Source: an uncultured Bacteriovoracaceae bacterium
Lineage (GTDB): Bacteria > Desulfobacterota > Desulfomonilia > UBA1062
Direction of reading: 5' to 3'
Length of the DNA: 64,000 nt
Assembly: GCA_964513375.1 (NCBI GenBank)
Contig: CAZEMO010000006.1
Span: forward strand, 7,567-71,566
The notes under the pieces were generated by a model. It was given only the letters and a program-made list of their open reading frames with translations, had not been told where the DNA came from and did no database searches. Shown here one piece after another: positions 53,756 to 64,000 of the stretch. Position numbers and translations under genes: made by a program. The number at the start of each line of letters is the position of its first letter. Positions within the stretch are counted from its first letter, which is position 1.

Positions 53756-55921
53756 TTGAACCTTTTTGCCTTATTTGCCAGCTATCTGAAAAAAACGTAC
53801 TGGGGAATTATCATCTGGGTGGGTTCCCTGATGGTGCTCGGTTTTGTAGTAGTCTTCGCCATGCATTCGTTCAGGATAGTGGAAAGGGAGATGGCCGCCC
53901 AGTTCAACCGGGAGCAGGAGCTTCTGGCCGAGCAGATGTCAATGGGCATCCAGCAGTACATGAACGACATCATAAATGTGATGAGTCTGACCTCGCGCAT
54001 AGAACCGGTTGCGGAAGGTGACAGGGAAGAGGTTTCAATAGCCATGAAAAACGCCTACACGTCGCTCAGGAACAAGGTGAACTTCATATTCTGGGAAAAC
54101 GCCTCAGGGATCATGCAATCCCATTTCCCGTCCGATGTTCTGCCCGGGATTGACGGCATGGATTTCAGCTACCGCACCTATTTCAGGGTTGCCCGCCAGA
54201 TGAAGGTGCCCTATGTGTCGGATATTATTCTCGTTGGCGGCGAGGAGAACCGGAACATACCGGACAAGTTCGAAACTTTTCTCATAGTATTCCCTCTCCT
54301 GGGCCATGACAGGAAATTCAACGGCGTCATCGGCTGCGCCATCGATATCAAGAACATAACCGCACAGTATGTAGCAACTGTCAGGCCTTCAAAGACCGGT
54401 TATACCTGGCTGGTGGATGAAACTGGCATGCTCCTCTATCATCCCGATCCTTCCATGATAGGCATGAACATTCATGATGTCATATTGAAAATGAAAAACA
54501 GCGGAATCGCTGTTCAGGGCATAGAAGAAGTAAGACAGGAGATGGAGGTAAAAAACAGCGGAAGCGCTGAAATTGTTTTTCCACATTATCCCAACGGAGA
54601 GCTTACAAATAAGCTGCTTGCATTTTCTTCCGTTCATTTTCTGAACAGGAGGTGGGTCACAGTCGTGACTTCCCCTTACCGTGAGGTTGTGTACCTCATG
54701 CAGGGCACCTTCAAGAACACACTTACGCTCGGTTCCGTCAGCATAGCGTTCATCGTTATAGCCACCTTGTTCCTTTTGAGGATAAACAGGGCGCGCACAA
54801 AAGCGGACGAGCGCAACAGATGGGCGGATCAGGTGCTGACCGCGCATAAAAGACTTGAAACCATATTCAACGGCGTACCCCATTTTCTTGTGACTGTTGA
54901 CGACAGGATGGTCATCAAGGATGCAAACGAGAATTTCTGCGGCCTTTACAAAAAAGAACGCAGCAGGGTGACCGGCATGAACTGTATCGACGATTTCGAT
55001 GAAAAGCAGATATTCTGCCCCGAGGAGGTTATACAGGCCGCTTTTGATACCTCGGCAATCCAGACGCTGAGAGACAGGCTGATCGAGATCGATGGGGACA
55101 AGAGATATTTTGATATCAGTGCCATCCCCCTTGTCGGCATGTCCGGCAGTGTGGACCTTGTGGTCCAGTACGGCGTCGAGATAACCGAGAAAAAGGCGCT
55201 TACCGAAAAGCTCATTCAGGCGGAAAAGCTTGCCGCAGTTGGCCAGATATCGGCCCATATGGCCCATGAGATAAGGAACCCGCTCACATCGATCATGCTG
55301 CATTCCGAGCTTCTGGAGGATGAAGTAAAAGGCTGTCCCGGCGAGAATGTTGAAGCCCTGAGGCTGTTAAAGGTGGTCATAGACGAAATAGACAGGCTCT
55401 CAAACATTACCGAAGAATACCTTGCATATGCCAGGCTTCCCATGCCGAAAAAACAGGTGATCGAAGCGGACTCGATTGTTTCGTCGGTTCTCGAAATGAT
55501 GCTGCCCGAGATGAGCAGGAGAAACATCAATCTGAAATATGCCGCACCCGAGGTTTCTACAAAGATCAATATCGACAACGGGCAGTTCAGGCAGGTGCTT
55601 ATAAACCTCATCAAGAACGCCATCGATGCGATGCCGTCTGGTGGAGAAATCGAGGTGCAGATGATGGAAAGGGGCAAGCATCTTGTATTATTTATTAAGG
55701 ATACTGGCTCGGGAATTCCGAAAGATATAACGAGGCGCATATTCGATCCTTATTTTACGACAAAAGACAATGGCACAGGTTTGGGGCTGTATCTGGTTCA
55801 ATATATAGCCAATGCCCATGACGGGTGGGTGGATGTGGAAAGCCAGCGAGGTTCAGGCTCCACTTTCATGCTGACTCTGCCGGTTTATAGCGGAGAAATG
55901 GAGAAGAAAGATGTTCATTAA
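53756..55921 (+). CDS. Cache-domain sensor histidine kinase with PAS
   Basis: Two TM helices around dCache-like region; AHEIRNPL, NLIKNA, DTGSGI, GTGLGL. Confidence 0.93.
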   Translation: MNLFALFASYLKKTYWGIIIWVGSLMVLGFVVVFAMHSFRIVEREMAAQFNREQELLAEQMSMGIQQYMNDIINVMSLTSRIEPVAEGDREEVSIAMKNAYTSLRNKVNFIFWENASGIMQSHFPSDVLPGIDGMDFSYRTYFRVARQMKVPYVSDIILVGGEENRNIPDKFETFLIVFPLLGHDRKFNGVIGCAIDIKNITAQYVATVRPSKTGYTWLVDETGMLLYHPDPSMIGMNIHDVILKMKNSGIAVQGIEEVRQEMEVKNSGSAEIVFPHYPNGELTNKLLAFSSVHFLNRRWVTVVTSPYREVVYLMQGTFKNTLTLGSVSIAFIVIATLFLLRINRARTKADERNRWADQVLTAHKRLETIFNGVPHFLVTVDDRMVIKDANENFCGLYKKERSRVTGMNCIDDFDEKQIFCPEEVIQAAFDTSAIQTLRDRLIEIDGDKRYFDISAIPLVGMSGSVDLVVQYGVEITEKKALTEKLIQAEKLAAVGQISAHMAHEIRNPLTSIMLHSELLEDEVKGCPGENVEALRLLKVVIDEIDRLSNITEEYLAYARLPMPKKQVIEADSIVSSVLEMMLPEMSRRNINLKYAAPEVSTKINIDNGQFRQVLINLIKNAIDAMPSGGEIEVQMMERGKHLVLFIKDTGSGIPKDITRRIFDPYFTTKDNGTGLGLYLVQYIANAHDGWVDVESQRGSGSTFMLTLPVYSGEMEKKDVH

Positions 55922-56972
55922 AACTATAATCAGTCTGATGGTCATGCTCTTTGCCGCAACGGCGGTAATGGCGGACGGGTCAAAGGTGATTGCCGTGGTT
56001 CCCCCCGGTGCGGACGAAGTGTTTCTGATGTCACAGGGGACCGGTGAGATACTGGGTTTCATTCACAAAAAATACGATTCGAATATCAAAGGTATTCAAT
56101 CCCGCTACAACCTTCCGGAATTAAAAAGCCGGGCGGAAAAGGAACTTATTTCGAGCCGGTCCGACAACGAAGCGGTAAACATGAGAGTGAAAAGCATAAA
56201 GGATGAGTATATTTCAAAACTTAACATTAAAATAAATAAGGTGAAGTCCTTCATATCCCCGGAGACGTCTGCAACCGGGGAGATTGAGTTTACCTATACT
56301 GCCGTAAACAATTCTGACAAAATAATCGCCGACGTTGTTTACACCCCGATGATAGGAAAAATGCAGATACAGACATCGTCGAAACTGGTTCTTGATTTCG
56401 TTGACAGGGCTACGCTAAAGGCAGGTATCGCTCCCGGGAAAAGTTTGATTACGACGGAAGAGGACCCTGACAGATTTTCTTTCCTTCTTGGGCAAATGAA
56501 TAAAAACGATATTGCCTATGCCAGGGAAAATGCCCAAAAAGGATTGTCGCTTAAAATAATCGATATCCATTTCACCAACTCGATCGAATATAAGGATCAG
56601 AGCAAAGTGCTCAGTGTCGAAGAGGCATTTCAGGACAGATTGCAGGATATCCTGACCAGAACATCGAGCGAGAATATATCGGCGCAGGAAGATACGGTTA
56701 AATATAAAGAGGCCCAGAAGGAATTTGATGCTGCGAAATCGGCGGCTCTCCAGGAATTTACACGGGAGGCGGGGGAGCTGAAAAAATCGGCTGTCCGTTA
56801 TTCATCCAAGGCAAGTGATAAAGGCCGGGCGGTTTTTGAAGAAGTGGTGCCCGGTAACTATTTTATATACGCAGTCAAAGACGGACAGGCGGTTTTCAGG
56901 GAAATCTCGGTAGGTAATCGCAAACTGAAAGTCAAAGTTGAAGAACTCCAGAAGGACCCGTTCAAACCATGA
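55911..56972 (+). CDS. Exported hypothetical protein within the two-component operon
   Basis: Signal peptide; overlaps both neighbours' ends. Confidence 0.75.
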   Translation: MFIKTIISLMVMLFAATAVMADGSKVIAVVPPGADEVFLMSQGTGEILGFIHKKYDSNIKGIQSRYNLPELKSRAEKELISSRSDNEAVNMRVKSIKDEYISKLNIKINKVKSFISPETSATGEIEFTYTAVNNSDKIIADVVYTPMIGKMQIQTSSKLVLDFVDRATLKAGIAPGKSLITTEEDPDRFSFLLGQMNKNDIAYARENAQKGLSLKIIDIHFTNSIEYKDQSKVLSVEEAFQDRLQDILTRTSSENISAQEDTVKYKEAQKEFDAAKSAALQEFTREAGELKKSAVRYSSKASDKGRAVFEEVVPGNYFIYAVKDGQAVFREISVGNRKLKVKVEELQKDPFKP

Positions 56973-58324
56973 GCAGAAGAATACTCGTTGTCGATGATGA
57001 AGTGGGCATCAGGGAATCCCTGAAAGTAATACTGGAAAAGGAAGGTTATACAGTGGATACGGCCTCGAACGGAGAGGACGCCTTCAAGATAATCAGACCT
57101 GGCGGGATAGACCTTCTGATCACCGATATCAGGATGGCGGGAATGGACGGACTTGAACTCTTGAAGCTCTGCAAATCTGTCTCGCCGCATTCGGAAGTGA
57201 TAATGATAACAGGCTATGCGGCAGTGGATACTGCAGTGGAATCCATGAAGGAAGGGGCTTATGACTACATAACCAAGCCCTTCAAGAAGGCCGAAATATT
57301 AAAGGCCGTGAGCAAGGCGATAGAAAAACAGACACTGGCGCTGGATAATCTCAAGCTCAAGAAACAGGTCGAATCTCTTGAATCGGGCCTGATCGTAGGC
57401 GCCGAAAGCCGCGCCATGCAGGATGTAATCAATATCGTCAATCAGGCCGCTCCGAGCCAGGCCACCATCCTGATACTGGGAGAGACCGGAACGGGAAAAG
57501 AGGTCATAGCCAATATGATACACCGCCTATCGCCCAGGGCGGCCAGGCCCATGGTAAGGGTCAACTGTGCAGCCATCCCCGAGACTCTGATCGAAGCTGA
57601 ACTGTTCGGGCATGAAAAAGGTGCTTTCACGGGCGCCGAAGGCCGCAGGGAAGGCAGATTCGAATCAGCCGACAAGTCGACCATCTTTCTGGATGAAATA
57701 GGAGAGGTCCCTCAGCCGGTGCAGGTCAAGCTTCTGCGCATACTTCAGGAAGGCCAGTTCGAGAGGCTCGGAAGCAATAAAACAATTACTGTCGACGTCA
57801 GGATTATCGCTGCAACGAACAGGAAAATTGAGGAGATGGTCAGGGAAGGCCACTTCAGGGAAGACCTTTACTGGCGGCTCAATGTCATAACGATAAATCT
57901 TCCGCCTTTAAGAGAAAGGAAAGAAGACATACCGGCACTGGTGCATCATTTCCTTTCGCGCTATGCCATGAAGAACGGCAAGACCGTAAGCGGCATCGAG
58001 TCGAGGGCCATGGACACGCTCATGGAATACGCATGGCCGGGCAACGTCCGCGAGCTTGAAAACATCGTGGAAAGGAGCGTCGTGCTTGACAGGGACGGCG
58101 TGCTCGGCGAGGACGACCTGCCGCGCAATATGGCCTCGACAGGCATCGCCCAGACAAAGGAAATTCTCACATTCACGGTCGGCACCCCGCTGGAAGAGGT
58201 CGAACGCCAGCTCATGGAAGAGACGCTCAAATATACGAAAGGTGACAAGGCCATGGCCTCGCGCCTGCTGGGTGTGTCAACGAGAACGCTGTACAGAAAA
58301 TTCGACAAGACCGAGGATGAGTGA
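56969..58324 (+). CDS. Sigma-54-dependent response regulator (NtrC family)
   Basis: REC domain, GETGTGKE, GAFTGA, FLDEIGE, WPGNVREL, Fis-type HTH. Confidence 0.96.
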   Translation: MSRRILVVDDEVGIRESLKVILEKEGYTVDTASNGEDAFKIIRPGGIDLLITDIRMAGMDGLELLKLCKSVSPHSEVIMITGYAAVDTAVESMKEGAYDYITKPFKKAEILKAVSKAIEKQTLALDNLKLKKQVESLESGLIVGAESRAMQDVINIVNQAAPSQATILILGETGTGKEVIANMIHRLSPRAARPMVRVNCAAIPETLIEAELFGHEKGAFTGAEGRREGRFESADKSTIFLDEIGEVPQPVQVKLLRILQEGQFERLGSNKTITVDVRIIAATNRKIEEMVREGHFREDLYWRLNVITINLPPLRERKEDIPALVHHFLSRYAMKNGKTVSGIESRAMDTLMEYAWPGNVRELENIVERSVVLDRDGVLGEDDLPRNMASTGIAQTKEILTFTVGTPLEEVERQLMEETLKYTKGDKAMASRLLGVSTRTLYRKFDKTEDE

Positions 58325-58451
58325 TTCCGTTCCGCATTCAAGCGCTACCGTTGTCTGCTGCGTCGGAATGCTCCTCGCCATACGTCAAAGTATGTCTGCG
58401 TCGCTTCCTTCCTTGCCTCCTCGGTATCATCTTGAATGCGAAATGGAATCA
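58322..58451. mobile_element. 130-bp MITE/REP-like element with 21-bp imperfect terminal inverted repeats
   Basis: TGATTCCGTTCCGCATTCAAG ... CTTGAATGCGAAATGGAATCA (19/21 match); starts on the TGA stop of the response regulator. Confidence 0.65.
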
Positions 58452-58717
58452 TTATATTTGGACTGTCATTCCGAACATATGTGAGGAATCTTTCTTTTCT
58501 GATGTTCTACTGAGCCATATTTTATCAACTGAAAATGTTGTTTGTTTAATCACATTTTTCAAGAATAAAGGCCAAGCATCTTTTGTTCCTTTTCTTGTTT
58601 TATGCTATAAACCAAAAATAAGTGGAAATGTCTTCCATCTATAGGGGGTGATATGACAGAATGTTTTCCATGTATTAAACTGTTATAACAGGTTGATAAA
58701 CAAAAGATTAAGACAGC

Positions 58718-59263
58718 ATGAGTAAATCAGAAATAAACATCCAAAGGGCTGGCGAACTTTTTATGTACAGTGTTTGGCTACAGAGCCAAATGTCAGACTT
58801 GATCATATTGAAAAAAAACCCGAAGTATATAAACGATTTTATCAATAACCCTTCAATGATTCCTGAGTCTATACATAAACAGAGAGTTAACTACTGGGAG
58901 AAAAAATTCCATACCGTCAAAGAGGAATTTAAGCAGGTCTTCTCTGGATGCTTACTTGAAGAGGAAATCAGAGATTTGGAATATATATACCATATTAGAA
59001 ATTCAATAGCGCACTCACATGTATCATTGGGTCGTGACTACATGCTATACCGCCCAGCCAGAAAGGCTCGTCAGGAACAAGAAATTAGGGAAGCTCTAGG
59101 CTTAACATCCATTAAGAATGAGGTTTCTCCAATGATCCTAAAACTAACTTTCCATGATAATCGCAGATACTTAAATGATTTTAATCGAATCAAAAGACTG
59201 GATGAAGTCTGTTTCAAGAGATTGTCAAGCGAAATAGGGATTCCTCATTCAAGAATAAGGTGA
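58718..59263 (+). CDS. Hypothetical protein with RxxxxH (HEPN-like) motif
   Basis: IRNSIAH in a helical context; AT-rich coding sequence. Confidence 0.65.
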   Translation: MSKSEINIQRAGELFMYSVWLQSQMSDLIILKKNPKYINDFINNPSMIPESIHKQRVNYWEKKFHTVKEEFKQVFSGCLLEEEIRDLEYIYHIRNSIAHSHVSLGRDYMLYRPARKARQEQEIREALGLTSIKNEVSPMILKLTFHDNRRYLNDFNRIKRLDEVCFKRLSSEIGIPHSRIR

Positions 59264-59285
59264 TATTGCTCTTGCTCTAAGAATC

Positions 59286-59358
59286 AAAAGGTGCCTGGCC
59301 TTGAAATTGGACAAATTAATCGATTTGTCATGGATCAAGGCCAGGCGCCTTTTCCTTC
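59286..59358. repeat. Palindromic repeat A, copy 1
   Basis: AAAAGGTGCCTGGCCTTGA...TCAAGGCCAGGCGCCTTTT with inner GACAAAT/ATTTGTC. Confidence 0.8.
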
Positions 59359-59378
59359 CAAAAACATAGGGGGATTAT

Positions 59379-59651
59379 ATGGAATTGTTAATGTGTATTA
59401 TCTCAGTATTTTTCTTATTCTCTTGCGCATCAACATCTGAAATTGTTCCAGCTGACAACGATAATTATATGATTACAAGTTCCAGTGCTACCATGAGCAC
59501 CGGTAACATGAAGCTAGAATTACTTCAAAAAGCCAATGATTTCTGTAATGCCAAAAATCAAACAATGACGGTAATCAATTTTTCTTCTCTTCCATTATGG
59601 CCAGGACACCCAGCTGAAGCTGAGCTAACATTCTGCTGCAAGAATAAATAA
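59379..59651 (+). CDS. Small lipoprotein
   Basis: Lipobox LFSC; ANDFC...AELTFCC. Confidence 0.75.
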   Translation: MELLMCIISVFFLFSCASTSEIVPADNDNYMITSSSATMSTGNMKLELLQKANDFCNAKNQTMTVINFSSLPLWPGHPAEAELTFCCKNK

Positions 59652-59655
59652 CGCC

Positions 59656-59727
59656 AAAGGGCATCAGGCCTTGAAATGGGACAATTGTTAGATTTGTCAT
59701 GGATCAAGGCCAGGTGTGTTTTCCTTC
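59656..59727. repeat. Palindromic repeat A, copy 2 (direct repeat of 59286-59358)
   Basis: Shares GGCCTTGAAAT, GGACAA, GATTTGTCATGGATCAAGGCCAGG and TTTTCCTTC with copy 1; one 1-bp gap. Confidence 0.8.
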
Positions 59728-59785
59728 AAACATTTAAAACATTTTTTCTGTTTAAAAACAGGAGATTTGTTTATAATGTAATTAA

Positions 59786-60283
59786 TTGTCAGCGACAAAA
59801 TATACATGGAGAAAGGCGGCTAAGAAATCACTGAATACAATCAATAAAATTTTAATGAGTCTTCCAGTTGCGTTATTAATAATGACTGGATTCAGCAGCA
59901 TAGCTGCCGGAAAGTCACCGATGACTGATATAGCTATAAAAGGATATGACACGGTTGCATATTTTATTGCCGGTAAAGCAATAAAAGGCAGTGAGGCTTT
60001 TTCATTTCAGTGGCACGACATGACCTGGTATTTTTTATCAAAAGAGAACAGGGACCTCTTCATGTCCGGCCCCGAGAAATATGCTCCACAGTATGACGGT
60101 TATTGTGCCTGGGCCATGACAGAGTCACGTAAAGCCCATACCGATCCTGAAGTTTGGAACATCGTTAACGGAAAGCTTTACTTGAATTGCAGCAAAAGTG
60201 CATATGAAAAATGGAGCAAAGATATTCCAGGCAATATCAAAAAGGCCGATAGGAATTGGTTAAGTTTTTCCAAATATAAGTAA
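59786..60283 (+). CDS. YHS domain protein, Cys form of the YHS (seleno)protein family
   Basis: AIKGYDTVAYF, PEKYAPQYDGYCAWAM, DPEVW.IVNGKLYL; Cys codon is TGT. Confidence 0.85.
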   Translation: MSATKYTWRKAAKKSLNTINKILMSLPVALLIMTGFSSIAAGKSPMTDIAIKGYDTVAYFIAGKAIKGSEAFSFQWHDMTWYFLSKENRDLFMSGPEKYAPQYDGYCAWAMTESRKAHTDPEVWNIVNGKLYLNCSKSAYEKWSKDIPGNIKKADRNWLSFSKYK

Positions 60284-60338
60284 ATTAGAAAAATTCCAGC
60301 CTATTGTGTCCTGCCAGGACCACGGCAAAATTAAGGCA

Positions 60339-60830
60339 TCATTTTTCCGGCATTGAAGAAGAATGATGGCTGACAATAAGCCATTGTTTACCATCCCAGC
60401 CATATGTGAAACTGTATCGCGCCTTGACTGTGTCTCCGGTTCTGGCAAAATGGAAAGTATAAAGGCCAGAGTCTACTGCCATGTTGCAGCCAATCTCTAT
60501 CTGTCTCATGTCGATCTGCCCGGAGGGCTGGTTCTCAAGAAAGTGCTGAAAATAGTCTATTTTTTCTTCTGGTGTGAGTCGAGGTTTGTTTGAGACTGTT
60601 GGCAGAAGAATTGACTTTTGAGCATAATTGGCAGCAACTTTTTGTGGATCACCAGTTTGTAAGGACTCGTTCCATCTGTCAAACAACGCCGCAATTTCTT
60701 GTACGCTGGTTTGAATGCAGCATTCTTTGCAGGCCATCGTTGTCTGAGTAATGTCGTTTGTGGCAGCAGTTGCGCAACCAGAGATGATTAAGCAGGCCAT
60801 GAAAAACAGTGCATGAACTTGGTTTTTCAT
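60339..60830 (-). CDS. SnoaL/NTF2-like lipoprotein (SgcJ/EcaC, CaMKII-association-domain-like)
   Basis: Lipobox ISGC; LFDRWNESL...LLPTVSN, ARYSFTY, WLIVSHHSSSMPE. Confidence 0.85.
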   Translation of the reverse strand: MKNQVHALFFMACLIISGCATAATNDITQTTMACKECCIQTSVQEIAALFDRWNESLQTGDPQKVAANYAQKSILLPTVSNKPRLTPEEKIDYFQHFLENQPSGQIDMRQIEIGCNMAVDSGLYTFHFARTGDTVKARYSFTYGWDGKQWLIVSHHSSSMPEK

Positions 60831-60922
60831 ATGTTTTTTCTCCTCTATCAATTCGGTATGGTTAGAAAATACCACTAAATAAGTTCTAATAAAGTCAGAA
60901 AACTGTCAGGGCCTCTCATTAG

Positions 60923-60989
60923 AAACTCAAGGGGTCAGCCACCGGCAATTGACGACATAATGTAAAATTTTGAGAAACGACCCCTTTGG
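60923..60989. repeat. Palindromic repeat B, copy 1 (67 bp)
   Basis: AAACTCAAGGGGT...ACCCCTTTGG. Confidence 0.8.
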
Positions 60990-61048
60990 CGCGTTCGGGT
61001 TTAGCCTCACCCGAATCACAACTGTAATTTATTCCGGACAGAAGCAGT

Positions 61049-62014
61049 CTATTCTATTGTTTTAACCTTCAGGCCTGCAGGTATTGCAGGAGGCGTCGTG
61101 TCCTGTTGTCCGGGGACGGTGCCGCCGACAAAGGTATTGCTTAATACAAGGCCGTCAACCCAGAACTTCTGCGGATGCGGCACGCCATTGTGATAATAGG
61201 GTGCAATCATGAACTGGTTGAATTTCATGTCGGCATTCGCCCCTGTGCGCAGGATCACGTTTTCCTGGTTGATGATCAGCTGATTGTTAAGCCAGTATTT
61301 TACATAACCGTCAGCCTGGGCCTCGCCGTTTAAAATGCTGTTCATCTTGAACTGGGCTTCGACCAGATACCATTTGCCGTTTGAGATCGTCTGTGTTGGA
61401 CTGAGCCAGCCCTTTCCGTTCATCCACCTGCCGCCAGAATAATAAGCCGAACAGTAATTGTATTTATCAGGGCCGCAGCCGTTTCCGCCTGCTATCGCCC
61501 TGCTTTCGGTAATCGCGCTCAGATCCTGGTTGACTCTTGCAGTATCGATATTCATACCGTCCTGTATTACCAGATGGGGCTTGCCGTTATTGACTTCGAT
61601 ATAGCAGGTCAGGTTGGTATAGGCCGGACCGCTGTATGCGGACTGTTTGGTTGTTAGGATGTAAAACTCGTGAGGGCCGTAGGTCTGCCCGGTCCATGTC
61701 CAGTTGTCGCTGTATTTGACATAATAGCGGACAAACAGTGTATCGGTCGGCGTGACTGCATGCCTCAAGGCGCCAAGTCCTGTCTGTGAGCCTGTTGCGG
61801 GAAAATTGAACTCAAGGACGCTGCTGCCCGTATCACTGTCATTGACCACGGTATGGCCTGAGGCTCCATCATACCAGCCTCTGGAAGAAAAGCTGGCATT
61901 ATTGAAATCTTCGCTTACAAAAACCTCTGCATATAAAGAGGCAGACATCAGGAAAAAAATGCAGATCAAACCAATGCCTGTTTTTAATGTGAACAGTATT
62001 TTTCTGGTTTTCAA
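61049..62014 (-). CDS. Secreted jelly-roll protein, polysaccharide-lyase-like
   Basis: Signal peptide; SEDF, LFVRYYVKYSDNW, WYLVE...KMN, DGYVKYWLN; TTG start after AAGGAG. Confidence 0.7.
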   Translation of the reverse strand: MKTRKILFTLKTGIGLICIFFLMSASLYAEVFVSEDFNNASFSSRGWYDGASGHTVVNDSDTGSSVLEFNFPATGSQTGLGALRHAVTPTDTLFVRYYVKYSDNWTWTGQTYGPHEFYILTTKQSAYSGPAYTNLTCYIEVNNGKPHLVIQDGMNIDTARVNQDLSAITESRAIAGGNGCGPDKYNYCSAYYSGGRWMNGKGWLSPTQTISNGKWYLVEAQFKMNSILNGEAQADGYVKYWLNNQLIINQENVILRTGANADMKFNQFMIAPYYHNGVPHPQKFWVDGLVLSNTFVGGTVPGQQDTTPPAIPAGLKVKTIE

Positions 62015-62197
62015 TGGACATCTCCTTAAATATTATTCTCAATATAATATGCAAAGTTTCAGCCTGAATCTATAATATCAAGCACATTGGACACAAATTA
62101 TAACTATATCAGGTAACTAGGAATGAATATCGAATCAGCAGCAAACACCCGGAGTATTGGAATGCATGCTGAATATGTTACAGTGATAACAACTTTG

Positions 62198-62264
62198 AAA
62201 CTCAAGGGGTAATCTCCCTGTAATTAAGAACATAATGGAATATGTTGAGATGCTACCCCTTTGG
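62198..62264. repeat. Palindromic repeat B, copy 2 (67 bp)
   Basis: 52/67 ungapped identities to 60923-60989 (counted by hand). Confidence 0.8.
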
Positions 62265-62364
62265 TGGGAATCACAGGATGTATAATCAGATGAACCGTTC
62301 AAATGAAAAACCGTGACGTTTAAGCCTGCTTGGGCTACCATCATAATTAACAGAAGATAATCAA

Positions 62365-63195
62365 ATGATGATCGCAGGAAAGGATATGGATATGGCAGAA
62401 AGAAAAGTCGTATGGATAACGGGTGCCTCTTCCGGCATCGGTGAGGCCCTGGCCCGGGAGTATAATTCCAGGGGCCATTTTGTTGTTTTGTCTGCAAGAA
62501 GGGAAGAGGTTTTGAATAAGGTTAAAAGTGAATTGAAGCATCCGGAAAATGCCATGGTGCTGCCCCTGGATATCACCCGGTTCGATACCGTTGATGAAAA
62601 GGTCTCGGAAGTTATTGAGCGGTGCGGCAAGATAGATGTTCTTATCAATAATGCGGGCATCGATTATAAAGACTGGGTGAGGAATACGCCGTTATCGATA
62701 TACCGGACAGTGCTGGAAGTTAATTTTTTTGGAAATATCGCCATTACGCTTAAGGTGCTTCCTCTGATGGAAAAAATCGGATCAGGGCATATCGTTTGTG
62801 TCAGCAGCGTGAACGGCGTACTGAGCGACAAATGCAGTTCCGCCTATTCAGCGGCCAAGCACGGACTGCACGGATTCTATGATGCGCTGCGGGCGGAGTG
62901 CCCGGAGGGTGTCACCGTTTCCATGATCACGCCGGGATTTATCCGTACCAATATCACGGTAAACAGTTTGAACGGAAAAGGATGCATTTATGGAAAGCAT
63001 TCTGATGCATGCCTTAAAGGCATGCCGCCGGAAAAGATGGCGAAATATGTGGTAAAACGCCTGGAAAAGAAATCACCGCTTATTTATGTGGGAGGATTCC
63101 CCGAACGTCTTGCCATATTGATCCATGACCTGTGTCCCGCGTGCTTTTACAAACTGGCGCGCAAGCTGGAGCCGGAGTACTGCAACAACAACTGA
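62365..63195 (+). CDS. Short-chain dehydrogenase/reductase
   Basis: WITGASSGIG, INNAG, YSAAK. Confidence 0.93.
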   Translation: MMIAGKDMDMAERKVVWITGASSGIGEALAREYNSRGHFVVLSARREEVLNKVKSELKHPENAMVLPLDITRFDTVDEKVSEVIERCGKIDVLINNAGIDYKDWVRNTPLSIYRTVLEVNFFGNIAITLKVLPLMEKIGSGHIVCVSSVNGVLSDKCSSAYSAAKHGLHGFYDALRAECPEGVTVSMITPGFIRTNITVNSLNGKGCIYGKHSDACLKGMPPEKMAKYVVKRLEKKSPLIYVGGFPERLAILIHDLCPACFYKLARKLEPEYCNNN

Positions 63196-63265
63196 TATAT
63201 GGATTCAATTTCTTTTTTTAAAATGAAGAGTATATTAAAGAAAGAAGAAGAAAGGAGATCTGAAT

Positions 63266-64000
63266 ATGGATATCAGCAAAAAAGATGAAACATTAACAGT
63301 GACAAAGCAGACCAGACGGAAATTCCTCACCCTTGCCGGTAAAGTTATGGCCTTCATTTCGGCGATGCCTTTACTGAACATTACAGGACGTAAAGCCATA
63401 GCCTCAAGTGTGCAGGCCGGTGAGCCTGAAACAGCCATTTCTATGAAAAGCGGGAATTATACCCTGCTTAAAAACGGTTTTATCGTCGACGGAACCGGCA
63501 AAAAGGGCTTTCAGGGTAACCTGCTTATCGATGGCGACAAGATAGAGAAAATATCGGAGCGTGAAATAAATGCTGAAGGCAAAGTCGTTGACTGCACAGG
63601 ATTGACCGTGATGCCGGGCATCATCGATGCGCATTCCCATATGGACTGGTATCTGCCGATCAGCGGGCATGAGGAACTCAAGCTTCCGTTCACGGCCCAG
63701 GGCATTACAACTTTTATGGCCGGGCAGTGCGGATTTGCAATTGCCGGGTACCGTAAAAACTCTCCTTACATGGGCAAAATCGGAAACAGCTTGTTTCCGA
63801 TGGACCTCATCCATATCCAGTGGGACACCATGCAGGAATATTTCGATTATCTGAAGAAGAACGGAATGACCCACAACATGATGAGCCTTGTCGGGCAAGG
63901 CACCACCAGGACTTCAATACGCGGATTTGACGCTTCGCCCATAACCAAGGACGAAATGAAGGAAATGCTCGGTCTGCTTGAGGACGCCATGGACCAGGGC
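63266..64000 (+). CDS. Tat-exported N-acyl-D-amino-acid deacylase-like amidohydrolase (partial, runs off the window; absent from ORF track)
   Basis: ATG 63266 after AAGGAG; Tat motif TRRKFL; NGFIVDGTG, PGIIDAHSH, QGITT...GQCG; frame open to 64000. Confidence 0.88.
   Translation, partial: MDISKKDETLTVTKQTRRKFLTLAGKVMAFISAMPLLNITGRKAIASSVQAGEPETAISMKSGNYTLLKNGFIVDGTGKKGFQGNLLIDGDKIEKISEREINAEGKVVDCTGLTVMPGIIDAHSHMDWYLPISGHEELKLPFTAQGITTFMAGQCGFAIAGYRKNSPYMGKIGNSLFPMDLIHIQWDTMQEYFDYLKKNGMTHNMMSLVGQGTTRTSIRGFDASPITKDEMKEMLGLLEDAMDQG

Follow-up and report, generated by a model that had tools for sequence, protein, structure and literature searches.

Two matched, imperfectly palindromic sequences (repeat B) flank a secreted lyase-like gene of an uncultured bacterium, and the locus raises the question of whether the pair delimits a mobile gene cassette or has some other origin. 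The window, i.e., the whole 64,000-nt stretch of DNA that was analysed, represents an organism of wastewater, bioreactor and sediment metagenomes, and one of its genes has its closest named relative in a Desulfomonilia MAG. The initial annotation took the lyase-like gene to be one unit of an integron-like, non-attC gene-capture hotspot. As a recombination site, B would suggest that anaerobic Desulfobacterota have a second way to stockpile gene cassettes, independent of attC; the evidence argues against this. The repeat pair is real and the islet that holds it is strain-variable, but an integron-like mechanism is unsupported. The locus illustrates that matched palindromic repeats on both sides of a gene do not by themselves make it a cassette.

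The repeat pair and its islet

Positions 1–58300 of the window carry core genes (tRNA synthetases, ATPases of type II/IV secretion, transporters and a sigma-54 two-component system). The islet at 58.4–62.3 kb is set apart by a GC content of 33–43% compared to ~50% in the flanks, with the drop starting at 58322, and is composed of small, unrelated genes with palindromic repeats between them, the sole cluster of intergenic palindromic repeats in the window. At its left edge lies an element of 130 nt (58322–58451), present in high copy number and bordered by terminal inverted repeats of 21 nt, followed by a weak HEPN-like ORF (58718–59263, plus strand) and a 90-aa lipoprotein (59379–59651, plus strand), the latter placed between two copies of repeat A, of which A1 (59281–59358) forms a strong hairpin with a 19-bp stem (z −7.0) and A2 (59655–59730) a degenerate one. 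A member of the YHS-domain (seleno)protein family (59786–60283, plus strand) comes next, and then an SgcJ/EcaC (DUF4440, SnoaL-like) lipoprotein gene (60339–60830, minus strand) with a native 72-nt upstream block (60831–60902), the lyase-like gene (61049–62014, minus strand) and an SDR gene (62365–63195, plus strand). Additional copies of repeat A and of the 130-nt element occur elsewhere. Five islet proteins gave no PADLOC match that would mark a defence island. Overall, the region is an islet of genes for exported proteins that varies among strains of this uncultured wastewater lineage.

Repeat B had been described as two ungapped 67-bp copies around one reverse-oriented gene, and this description is confirmed, with identity at 52 of 67 positions between 60923–60989 and 62198–62264. 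The match reaches 4 nt further to the left, to give 55 of 71 identical positions (77%) between copy 1 (B1, 60919–60989, plus strand) and copy 2 (B2, 62194–62264, plus strand). The two are direct repeats in the same orientation with a start-to-start spacing of 1275 bp. B1 is found 60 nt downstream of the stop of the lyase-like gene and 17 nt past the native upstream block of the SgcJ/EcaC gene, while B2 occupies the divergent intergenic gap between the lyase-like gene (minus strand) and the SDR gene (plus strand). The significance of the match, taken as a binomial tail corrected by multiplication for every pair of positions in the 64 kb, is ~8e-11, and a pattern composed of the B ends and their spacer occurs twice in the window and in none of 100 shuffles. 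A small hairpin, TTCGGGT-N8-ACCCGAA (60994–61015), lies between B1 and the lyase stop and has no counterpart by B2.

Likeness between the copies drops off abruptly at the 71-nt borders in gapped alignments of the flanks. The left flanks have no common sequence in these alignments, and the sole piece common to the right flanks is the 8-mer GAATCACA, which is equalled by 98 of 1000 shuffles. Such abrupt borders between unrelated flanks show that B is not the trace of a larger segmental duplication. The blocks AAACTCAAGGGGT, ACATAATG and ACCCCTTTGG are unchanged between B1 and B2, the identical blocks measuring 14, 10 and 8 nt. The initial annotation saw in them conserved ends and a conserved centre; with two copies, this pattern falls short of statistical significance, as the mismatches are without significant clustering and the identity runs are matched by 11–30% of random placements of 16 mismatches. 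Across strain variants, B2 is changed at 62203, 62214, 62216, 62221, 62228, 62230 and 62244; these changes are interior save for a C>T at 62203 in the left end block, and none falls in the centre or in the other end block.

The term 'palindromic' applies to the repeat in part. The ends of B read GAAACTCAAGGGGT and ACCCCTTTGG, and both copies carry a terminal inverted repeat of 8 bp (8–9 bp with a (T)G extension), AAGGGGTN...NACCCCTT, in which one compensatory difference affects the innermost pair (C-G in B1, A-T in B2). By contrast, single-strand folding of B1 is no better than that of shuffles (z 0.08 and −0.05), and that of B2 is modestly above them (z −2.4 to −2.8). The outer stem common to the two copies is limited to the 8 bp, the inner hairpin that B2 is predicted to form is disrupted in the X9 variant and not kept across variants, and the modest self-complementarity of the whole element is reached by 2 of 500 shuffles for B2 and 21 of 500 for B1. 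On the minus strand, GGGGTAGC in B2 corresponds to GGGGTCGT in B1, with GTAG in the former where the latter has GTCG.

Several roles for the sequence itself were considered and set aside. A scan for sigma-70 promoters and intrinsic terminators found none within B, and a terminator function of B2 is ruled out by its site between divergent genes. A diversity-generating (TR/VR) repeat is excluded by mismatches that show no adenine specificity and by the non-coding nature of B; a small ORF is likewise excluded, as B1 has ATG-TAA. A search of 56000–64000 against Rfam at E up to 1 returned two sub-threshold matches, each of them on repeat A, so that a known RNA family is also rejected for B.

Gene turnover and the recombination-site reading

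Twelve metagenome runs were compared across this region. In the strain represented by contig L010, which encodes a lyase-like protein of 94% identity (DNA ~90%), a 747-bp segment with the SgcJ/EcaC gene and B1 (60308–61054) is absent and the 3' end of the YHS gene is joined directly to the 3' end of the lyase-like gene. The segment is bounded by CCTATTGT (60300–60307) and TCTATTCT (61047–61054), which provide 7–8 nt of microhomology, and on the gene strand the junction reads ACAATAG / AATAG and overlaps the lyase stop codon. The junction is considered real because an assembly artefact would need a 30-mer overlap; the alignment of a sediment (X19) contig also stops at 60307. The pentamer ATTGT was considered as a common junction motif, but at 3.8 occurrences per kb in the islet its presence is probably a coincidence. 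Turnover also affects the left part of the islet: in the sediment run the HEPN-A1-lipoprotein-A2 stretch is at zero depth, and one contig joins 58439 to 59784.

The L010 strain retains the lyase-like gene without B1, its contig bearing the first 9 nt of B2 alone; thus, the gene can be kept without the pair. As the indel corresponds to 60308–61054, the variable unit is not B1-lyase-B2. A 72-nt block (60831–60902) is common to a 79%-identical SgcJ/EcaC homologue from another metagenome (L016), which is without B. The shared block ends at 60902, and B1 therefore starts just outside the gene's own regulatory region.

These data bear on the model proposed initially, in which B and A alike serve as recombination sites for a gene-capture system other than an integron, the recombinase is encoded elsewhere, and recombination between B1 and B2 excises or inserts the lyase module. 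The islet is indeed strain-variable, with single-gene modules and palindromic repeats between them, and one variable module corresponds to one gene plus one B copy, formally an ORF plus a site. Two strain variants lose homology 0–5 nt from the right end of B2: homology of an X15 contig to the window ends at 62269, and the hypervariable 37 nt directly right of B2 (62265–62301) are replaced by 163 nt in one X19 strain. The identical blocks of B1 and B2 could, in addition, act as crossover cores. However, the junctions of the 747-bp indel (60307/60308 and 61054/61055) lie 611 nt to the left and 65 nt to the right of B1 and use microhomology unrelated to B, and the covariance model of B detects no B-like remnant at the left junction. 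No contig of the 12 metagenomes joins B1 to B2 or is without the lyase-like gene, which is weak evidence as contigs drop rare forms. Furthermore, the islet genes are convergent rather than co-oriented, B with other cargo is found nowhere among the searched collections, and no integrase, recombinase, transposase or RAYT domain was detected among the ORFs examined (42 ORFs of at least 150 aa in 1–56000 together with the islet genes; 50 ORFs over the 64 kb). The model is thus regarded as highly unlikely. Still less probable is its broader form, in which B and A mark a non-integron system whose recombinase, located elsewhere, shuffles single-gene modules and has left the breakpoints at the right end of B2 as footprints. 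Of the proposed hotspot, what stands is that gene content of the islet differs between strains; the notion that B forms recombination-site arms that box a cassette does not.

Integron cassettes resemble the islet in that both present single small genes, imperfect palindromes of 60–80 nt between them and strain-variable content, and in that one variable unit comprises one gene and one repeat. An attC site has inverse core and core motifs, RYYYAAC ... GTTRRRY, that are 57–141 nt apart (PMC5027507). No attC R''/R' core pair occurs on either strand of 58300–62500, where 0.86 is expected in shuffles. The absence of core motifs, together with the lack of a hairpin common to both B copies, rules out an attC site, in agreement with the initial designation of the repeat as non-attC. 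The imperfect hairpin of single-stranded attC comprises R and L boxes, a central unpaired spacer and extrahelical bases; B1 is without a convincing hairpin, and the extrahelical-base and spacer architecture is not seen in B. Cassette boundaries of integrons fall inside the site, whereas the indel junctions here are at least 65 nt from B1; moreover, integron cassettes are distinguished from the islet by the convergent genes of the latter and by the lack of IntI in the examined ORFs of the 64 kb, an enzyme that integrase-less arrays also do without.

The Xer recombinases act on dif-like sites of 28 bp, with an 11-bp arm, a 6-bp spacer and a second 11-bp arm, the XerD arm being conserved. Judged by eye against the dif consensus, only CATAATG in B is dif-arm-like, while the right-arm positions mismatch and differ between B1 and B2. 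Resemblance to dif/Xer or Hin-type sites is therefore loose, over 7–13 nt by eye, and both were rejected.

The lyase-like gene and a regulatory reading of B2

The lyase-like gene encodes 321 aa from a TTG start codon, with AAGGAG 7 nt upstream. The product is predicted to form a beta-jelly-roll (AlphaFold2 pLDDT 83) behind a signal-like helix at its N-terminus, with PL36/PL14 alginate lyases as the nearest structures (Foldseek E 7e-11 to 1e-9), and has weak sequence-profile matches to Pfam PF14099 (E 7.5e-4) and the PDB profile 6kcv (E 0.008). Based on the model, it is probably an exported, polysaccharide-lyase-like protein. In RNA run X22, thin contigs cover the lyase ORF (61204–61981) and none covers B, which is uninformative on B transcription.

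A candidate sigma-54-type −24/−12 promoter, (A)GGCTGAAACTTTGCA / AGGCTGAAACTTTGCA (62050–62064, minus strand), starts 51 nt before the lyase start codon, and AGGCTGAAACTTTGCA is the only intergenic match out of seven in the window. The motif is identical and again 51 nt before the start in L010, and orthologues of 53–56% amino acid identity (L012 and L013) have the same motif class 56 and 58 nt before the start, compared to a chance expectation for this class of ~0.05 per 300 nt. A sigma-54-dependent response regulator (56969–58324, plus strand; Response_reg, Sigma54_activat and HTH_8 domains) is encoded with a two-component kinase 3.7 kb away. This points to a candidate link of the polysaccharide-lyase-like gene, with a promoter type that is kept across orthologues, to a sigma-54 two-component system.

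This promoter suggests a reading in which B is cis-regulatory: B2 would be the upstream activating sequence of a sigma-54 enhancer-binding protein, perhaps the 56969–58324 regulator, which would loop to the lyase −24/−12 promoter, and B1 would be a second or vestigial site. Sites of NtrC-family activators are usually ~80–200 bp upstream of a −24/−12 promoter, and the centre of B2, which is ~165 bp upstream of the lyase −24 element, falls in this range. The symmetric ends of B could be protein half-sites, and the activator gene is near. In one diverged sediment strain, the alignable stretch is 62164–62264 only (92 of 101 positions), with B2 as its right part, while the neighbouring intergenic DNA is replaced and unalignable, a pattern that favours a functional site at B2. 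However, the half-sites at the ends of B are 55 bp apart and form no compact dyad, whereas activator-site dyads are usually 16–20 bp. B1 has no partner promoter: the interval between it and the SgcJ/EcaC gene (60831–61048) is without a sigma-54 motif, the native upstream block of that gene ends before B1, and B1 is dispensable in one strain. The covariance model of B finds no B-like site at the operon of the regulator or elsewhere in the window, and orthologous lyase loci are without B-like sequence. The regulatory reading is thus plausible and well supported for B2 only, leaving B1 unexplained, and as an account of the repeat pair as a whole it is rather unlikely.

Origin and distribution of repeat B

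The tentatively favoured explanation is that B1 and B2 are ancient representatives of a short palindromic intergenic repeat restricted to this lineage. B would be a MITE or REP-like relic, i.e., a small palindromic element, non-autonomous and left in two diverged copies, with a 71-nt unit, terminal inverted repeats of 8–9 bp, an AT-rich core and a very low copy number. A trans-acting enzyme may once have placed the copies by recognising their ends. The two copies would simply fill two neighbouring intergenic gaps without delimiting a mobile cassette, and gene turnover in the islet would proceed via junctions outside the repeats, as shown for the one indel at 60308–61054, whose microhomology joint resembles that of illegitimate recombination. 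Today the copies may be inactive, or B2 may have acquired a regulatory role. The relic reading is favoured because of the sharp borders, the compensatory inverted ends, the proximity of repeat A and the 130-nt element, the lineage restriction, a stray fragment of B at a second locus, the mostly interior position of strain changes in B2 and the placement of the indel junctions outside B.

The resemblance of B to MITEs and REPs is in kind only, as formal membership tests failed. Similarly to REPs and REPINs, B is a short intergenic imperfect palindrome that is lineage-specific, clustered with other repeats and subject to a stem-keeping compensatory change. REPs, however, number tens to hundreds per genome family and are marked by a GTAG or CGTC tetranucleotide that is conserved (PMC3733652, PMC3116915), whereas B has two to three copies, no tag common to B1 and B2 and no RAYT in the window. 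With MITEs, B shares a size below 100 nt, an AT-rich core, two direct copies around a passenger gene and terminal inverted repeats, which can also be read as CAAGGGGTN / NACCCCTT(T)G. By contrast to MITEs, target-site duplications are lacking at B1 (flanks CCTCTCA and CGCGTTC), at B2 (flanks ATAACAAC and TGGGAAT) and for the pair as a unit. Further copies are nearly absent, there is no insertion sequence as a parent, and an autonomous parent element was found in none of the collections searched.

Several observations sit uneasily with a relic. Two full copies and one fragment are far too few for an active element; target-site duplications, a transposase or RAYT in the examined ORFs and a conserved GTAG/CGTC tag are lacking; and the persistence of B2 and 30 nt to its left as alignable sequence amid unalignable DNA fits a functional site better.

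A more modest origin would be a short in-situ duplication or a gene-conversion relic, immobile and functionless. The presence of only two full copies, in the same orientation and 1275 bp apart, is consistent with such an event, as are mismatches spread as chance predicts and an interior of B2 that, in one strain, changes faster than adjacent DNA (4 changes in the 71 nt of B2 vs. 0 in the compared 94 nt to the left). Sharp borders and unrelated flanks would, however, be unusual for a duplication that skips 1.2 kb, and neither the compensatory change in the terminal stem, the B2 block that is alignable between diverged strains nor the B1-like fragment at a second locus is readily accommodated. 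A local duplication is, therefore, judged unlikely.

For the relic reading, the distribution of B is informative. With B1, B2 and two strain variants as its input, a covariance model recovers the two copies alone in the window, with scores of 109 and 95 bits (95.5 for B1), the next match scoring 13.7 bits (E 0.29), and gives no match in ~82 kb of related loci. Pattern scans with the exact ends returned four matches in 185,579 species-representative genomes and two in JGI metagenomes, all six at chance level and both of the latter with interiors unrelated to B, and none in IMG/VR, PLSDB plasmids or phage records. In Logan assemblies of samples that contain this genome (four assemblies, 1.1–4.1 Gb), the single match of at least 80% for each B copy is the copy itself. 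An exact-protein look-up of the lyase-like and SDR proteins of the window returned no match. Homologues of the lyase-like protein (53–64% identity) either have polysaccharide deacetylase and glycosyltransferase genes as neighbours or lie in different surroundings, homologues of the SDR protein (83–88% identity) are in non-syntenic contexts, and no B- or A-like repeat was found at the homologue loci of lyase, SgcJ/EcaC or SDR; thus, B does not travel with any of these genes and is lineage-restricted. In terms of novelty the finding is modest, i.e., another lineage-specific short palindromic repeat of uncertain role and a minor curiosity, rather than a new gene-capture system.

The initial annotation was framed against the alternative that the copies are dispersed singly, and on this point the data are mixed: no further full copy was found, but a lone B1-like fragment exists beside an A-like copy. 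This third B-like piece is 24 nt in length, at least 90% identical to B1 at 60930–60953 and located on another contig (7.8 kb, run X1), where it comes 25 nt after the A-like copy (56 nt, six mismatches to A1) and the sequence diverges beyond. The contig has a depth about equal to that of this locus, and its form is seen in 9 of 12 runs. The fragment suggests that B-like sequence is, or once was, dispersed; B-like sequence is very rare, yet not strictly limited to this locus.

Presence/absence variation of the islet

The islet, a low-GC and strain-variable run of small genes, has a second presence/absence polymorphism at 58440-59783. In one sediment metagenome, the depth is zero over this interval, which carries the HEPN-like gene, the first copy of the hairpin repeat A (A1), the lipoprotein gene and the second copy (A2), and a contig of the same metagenome joins 58439 to 59784. 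At the other side of the islet, one strain has 163 nt in place of the 37 nt at 62265-62301, located between B2 (the right-hand copy of repeat B that flanks the lyase-like gene) and the upstream region of the SDR gene, and in another strain the sequence divergence begins past 62269; this interval is a hypervariable spot. A palindrome (GTCCTGCCAGGAC, 60308-60320) sits precisely at the left boundary of the 747-bp segment that varies among strains, in the gap between YHS and SgcJ/EcaC, two convergent genes.

Inverted-repeat element and repeat A- and B-type sequences

A 130-nt element (58322-58451) is delimited by 21-nt terminal inverted repeats (TGATTCCGTTCCGCATTCAAG ... CTTGAATGCGAAATGGAATCA). 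In the metagenomes examined, this element reaches up to about 30 times the depth of the genome, and assembly breaks fall within it. One 17.8-kb contig starts inside the element and ends in an inverted copy; thus, an inverted pair brackets the islet and about 12 kb past the window.

The islet thus contains three or more members of the repeat A family: besides A1 and A2, a half-copy similar to the right arm of the repeat (ATAAAGGCCAAGCATCTTTTG...) is found at 58565-58600, upstream of the HEPN-like gene. In the same set of metagenomes, another contig, 7.8 kb long in run X1, includes an A-like hairpin that matches 59298-59353 with 6 mismatches in 56 nt, followed by 25 nt (GTGCCTAACGCCCTGAAAAAGCCTG) and a 24-nt stretch similar to B1 (the left-hand copy of repeat B) that matches 60930-60953. 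A- and B-type sequences thus neighbour each other at this second locus too.

Regulation and homologues of the islet genes

A sigma-54-type -24/-12 motif is noted 51-58 nt upstream of the start codon of the lyase-like family at four loci (the window, L010, L012 and L013), with the candidate motif of the lyase-like gene at 62050-62064 (-). This motif, together with a sigma-54 response regulator and dCache histidine kinase pair (53756-58324), suggests a polysaccharide-sensing regulon.

Homologues of the SDR gene (62365-63195, +) with 83-88% identity occur at four loci (L017-L020), in wholly different gene neighbourhoods; thus, synteny among relatives is also absent from the DNA on the right side of B2. 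The SgcJ/EcaC (DUF4440) lipoprotein (60339-60830, -) has homologues of 64-72% identity in MAGs labelled Acidobacteriota, Kiritimatiellae, Chlamydiota, Desulfatiglans and Cupriavidus, an unusually even spread that suggests frequent horizontal transfer.
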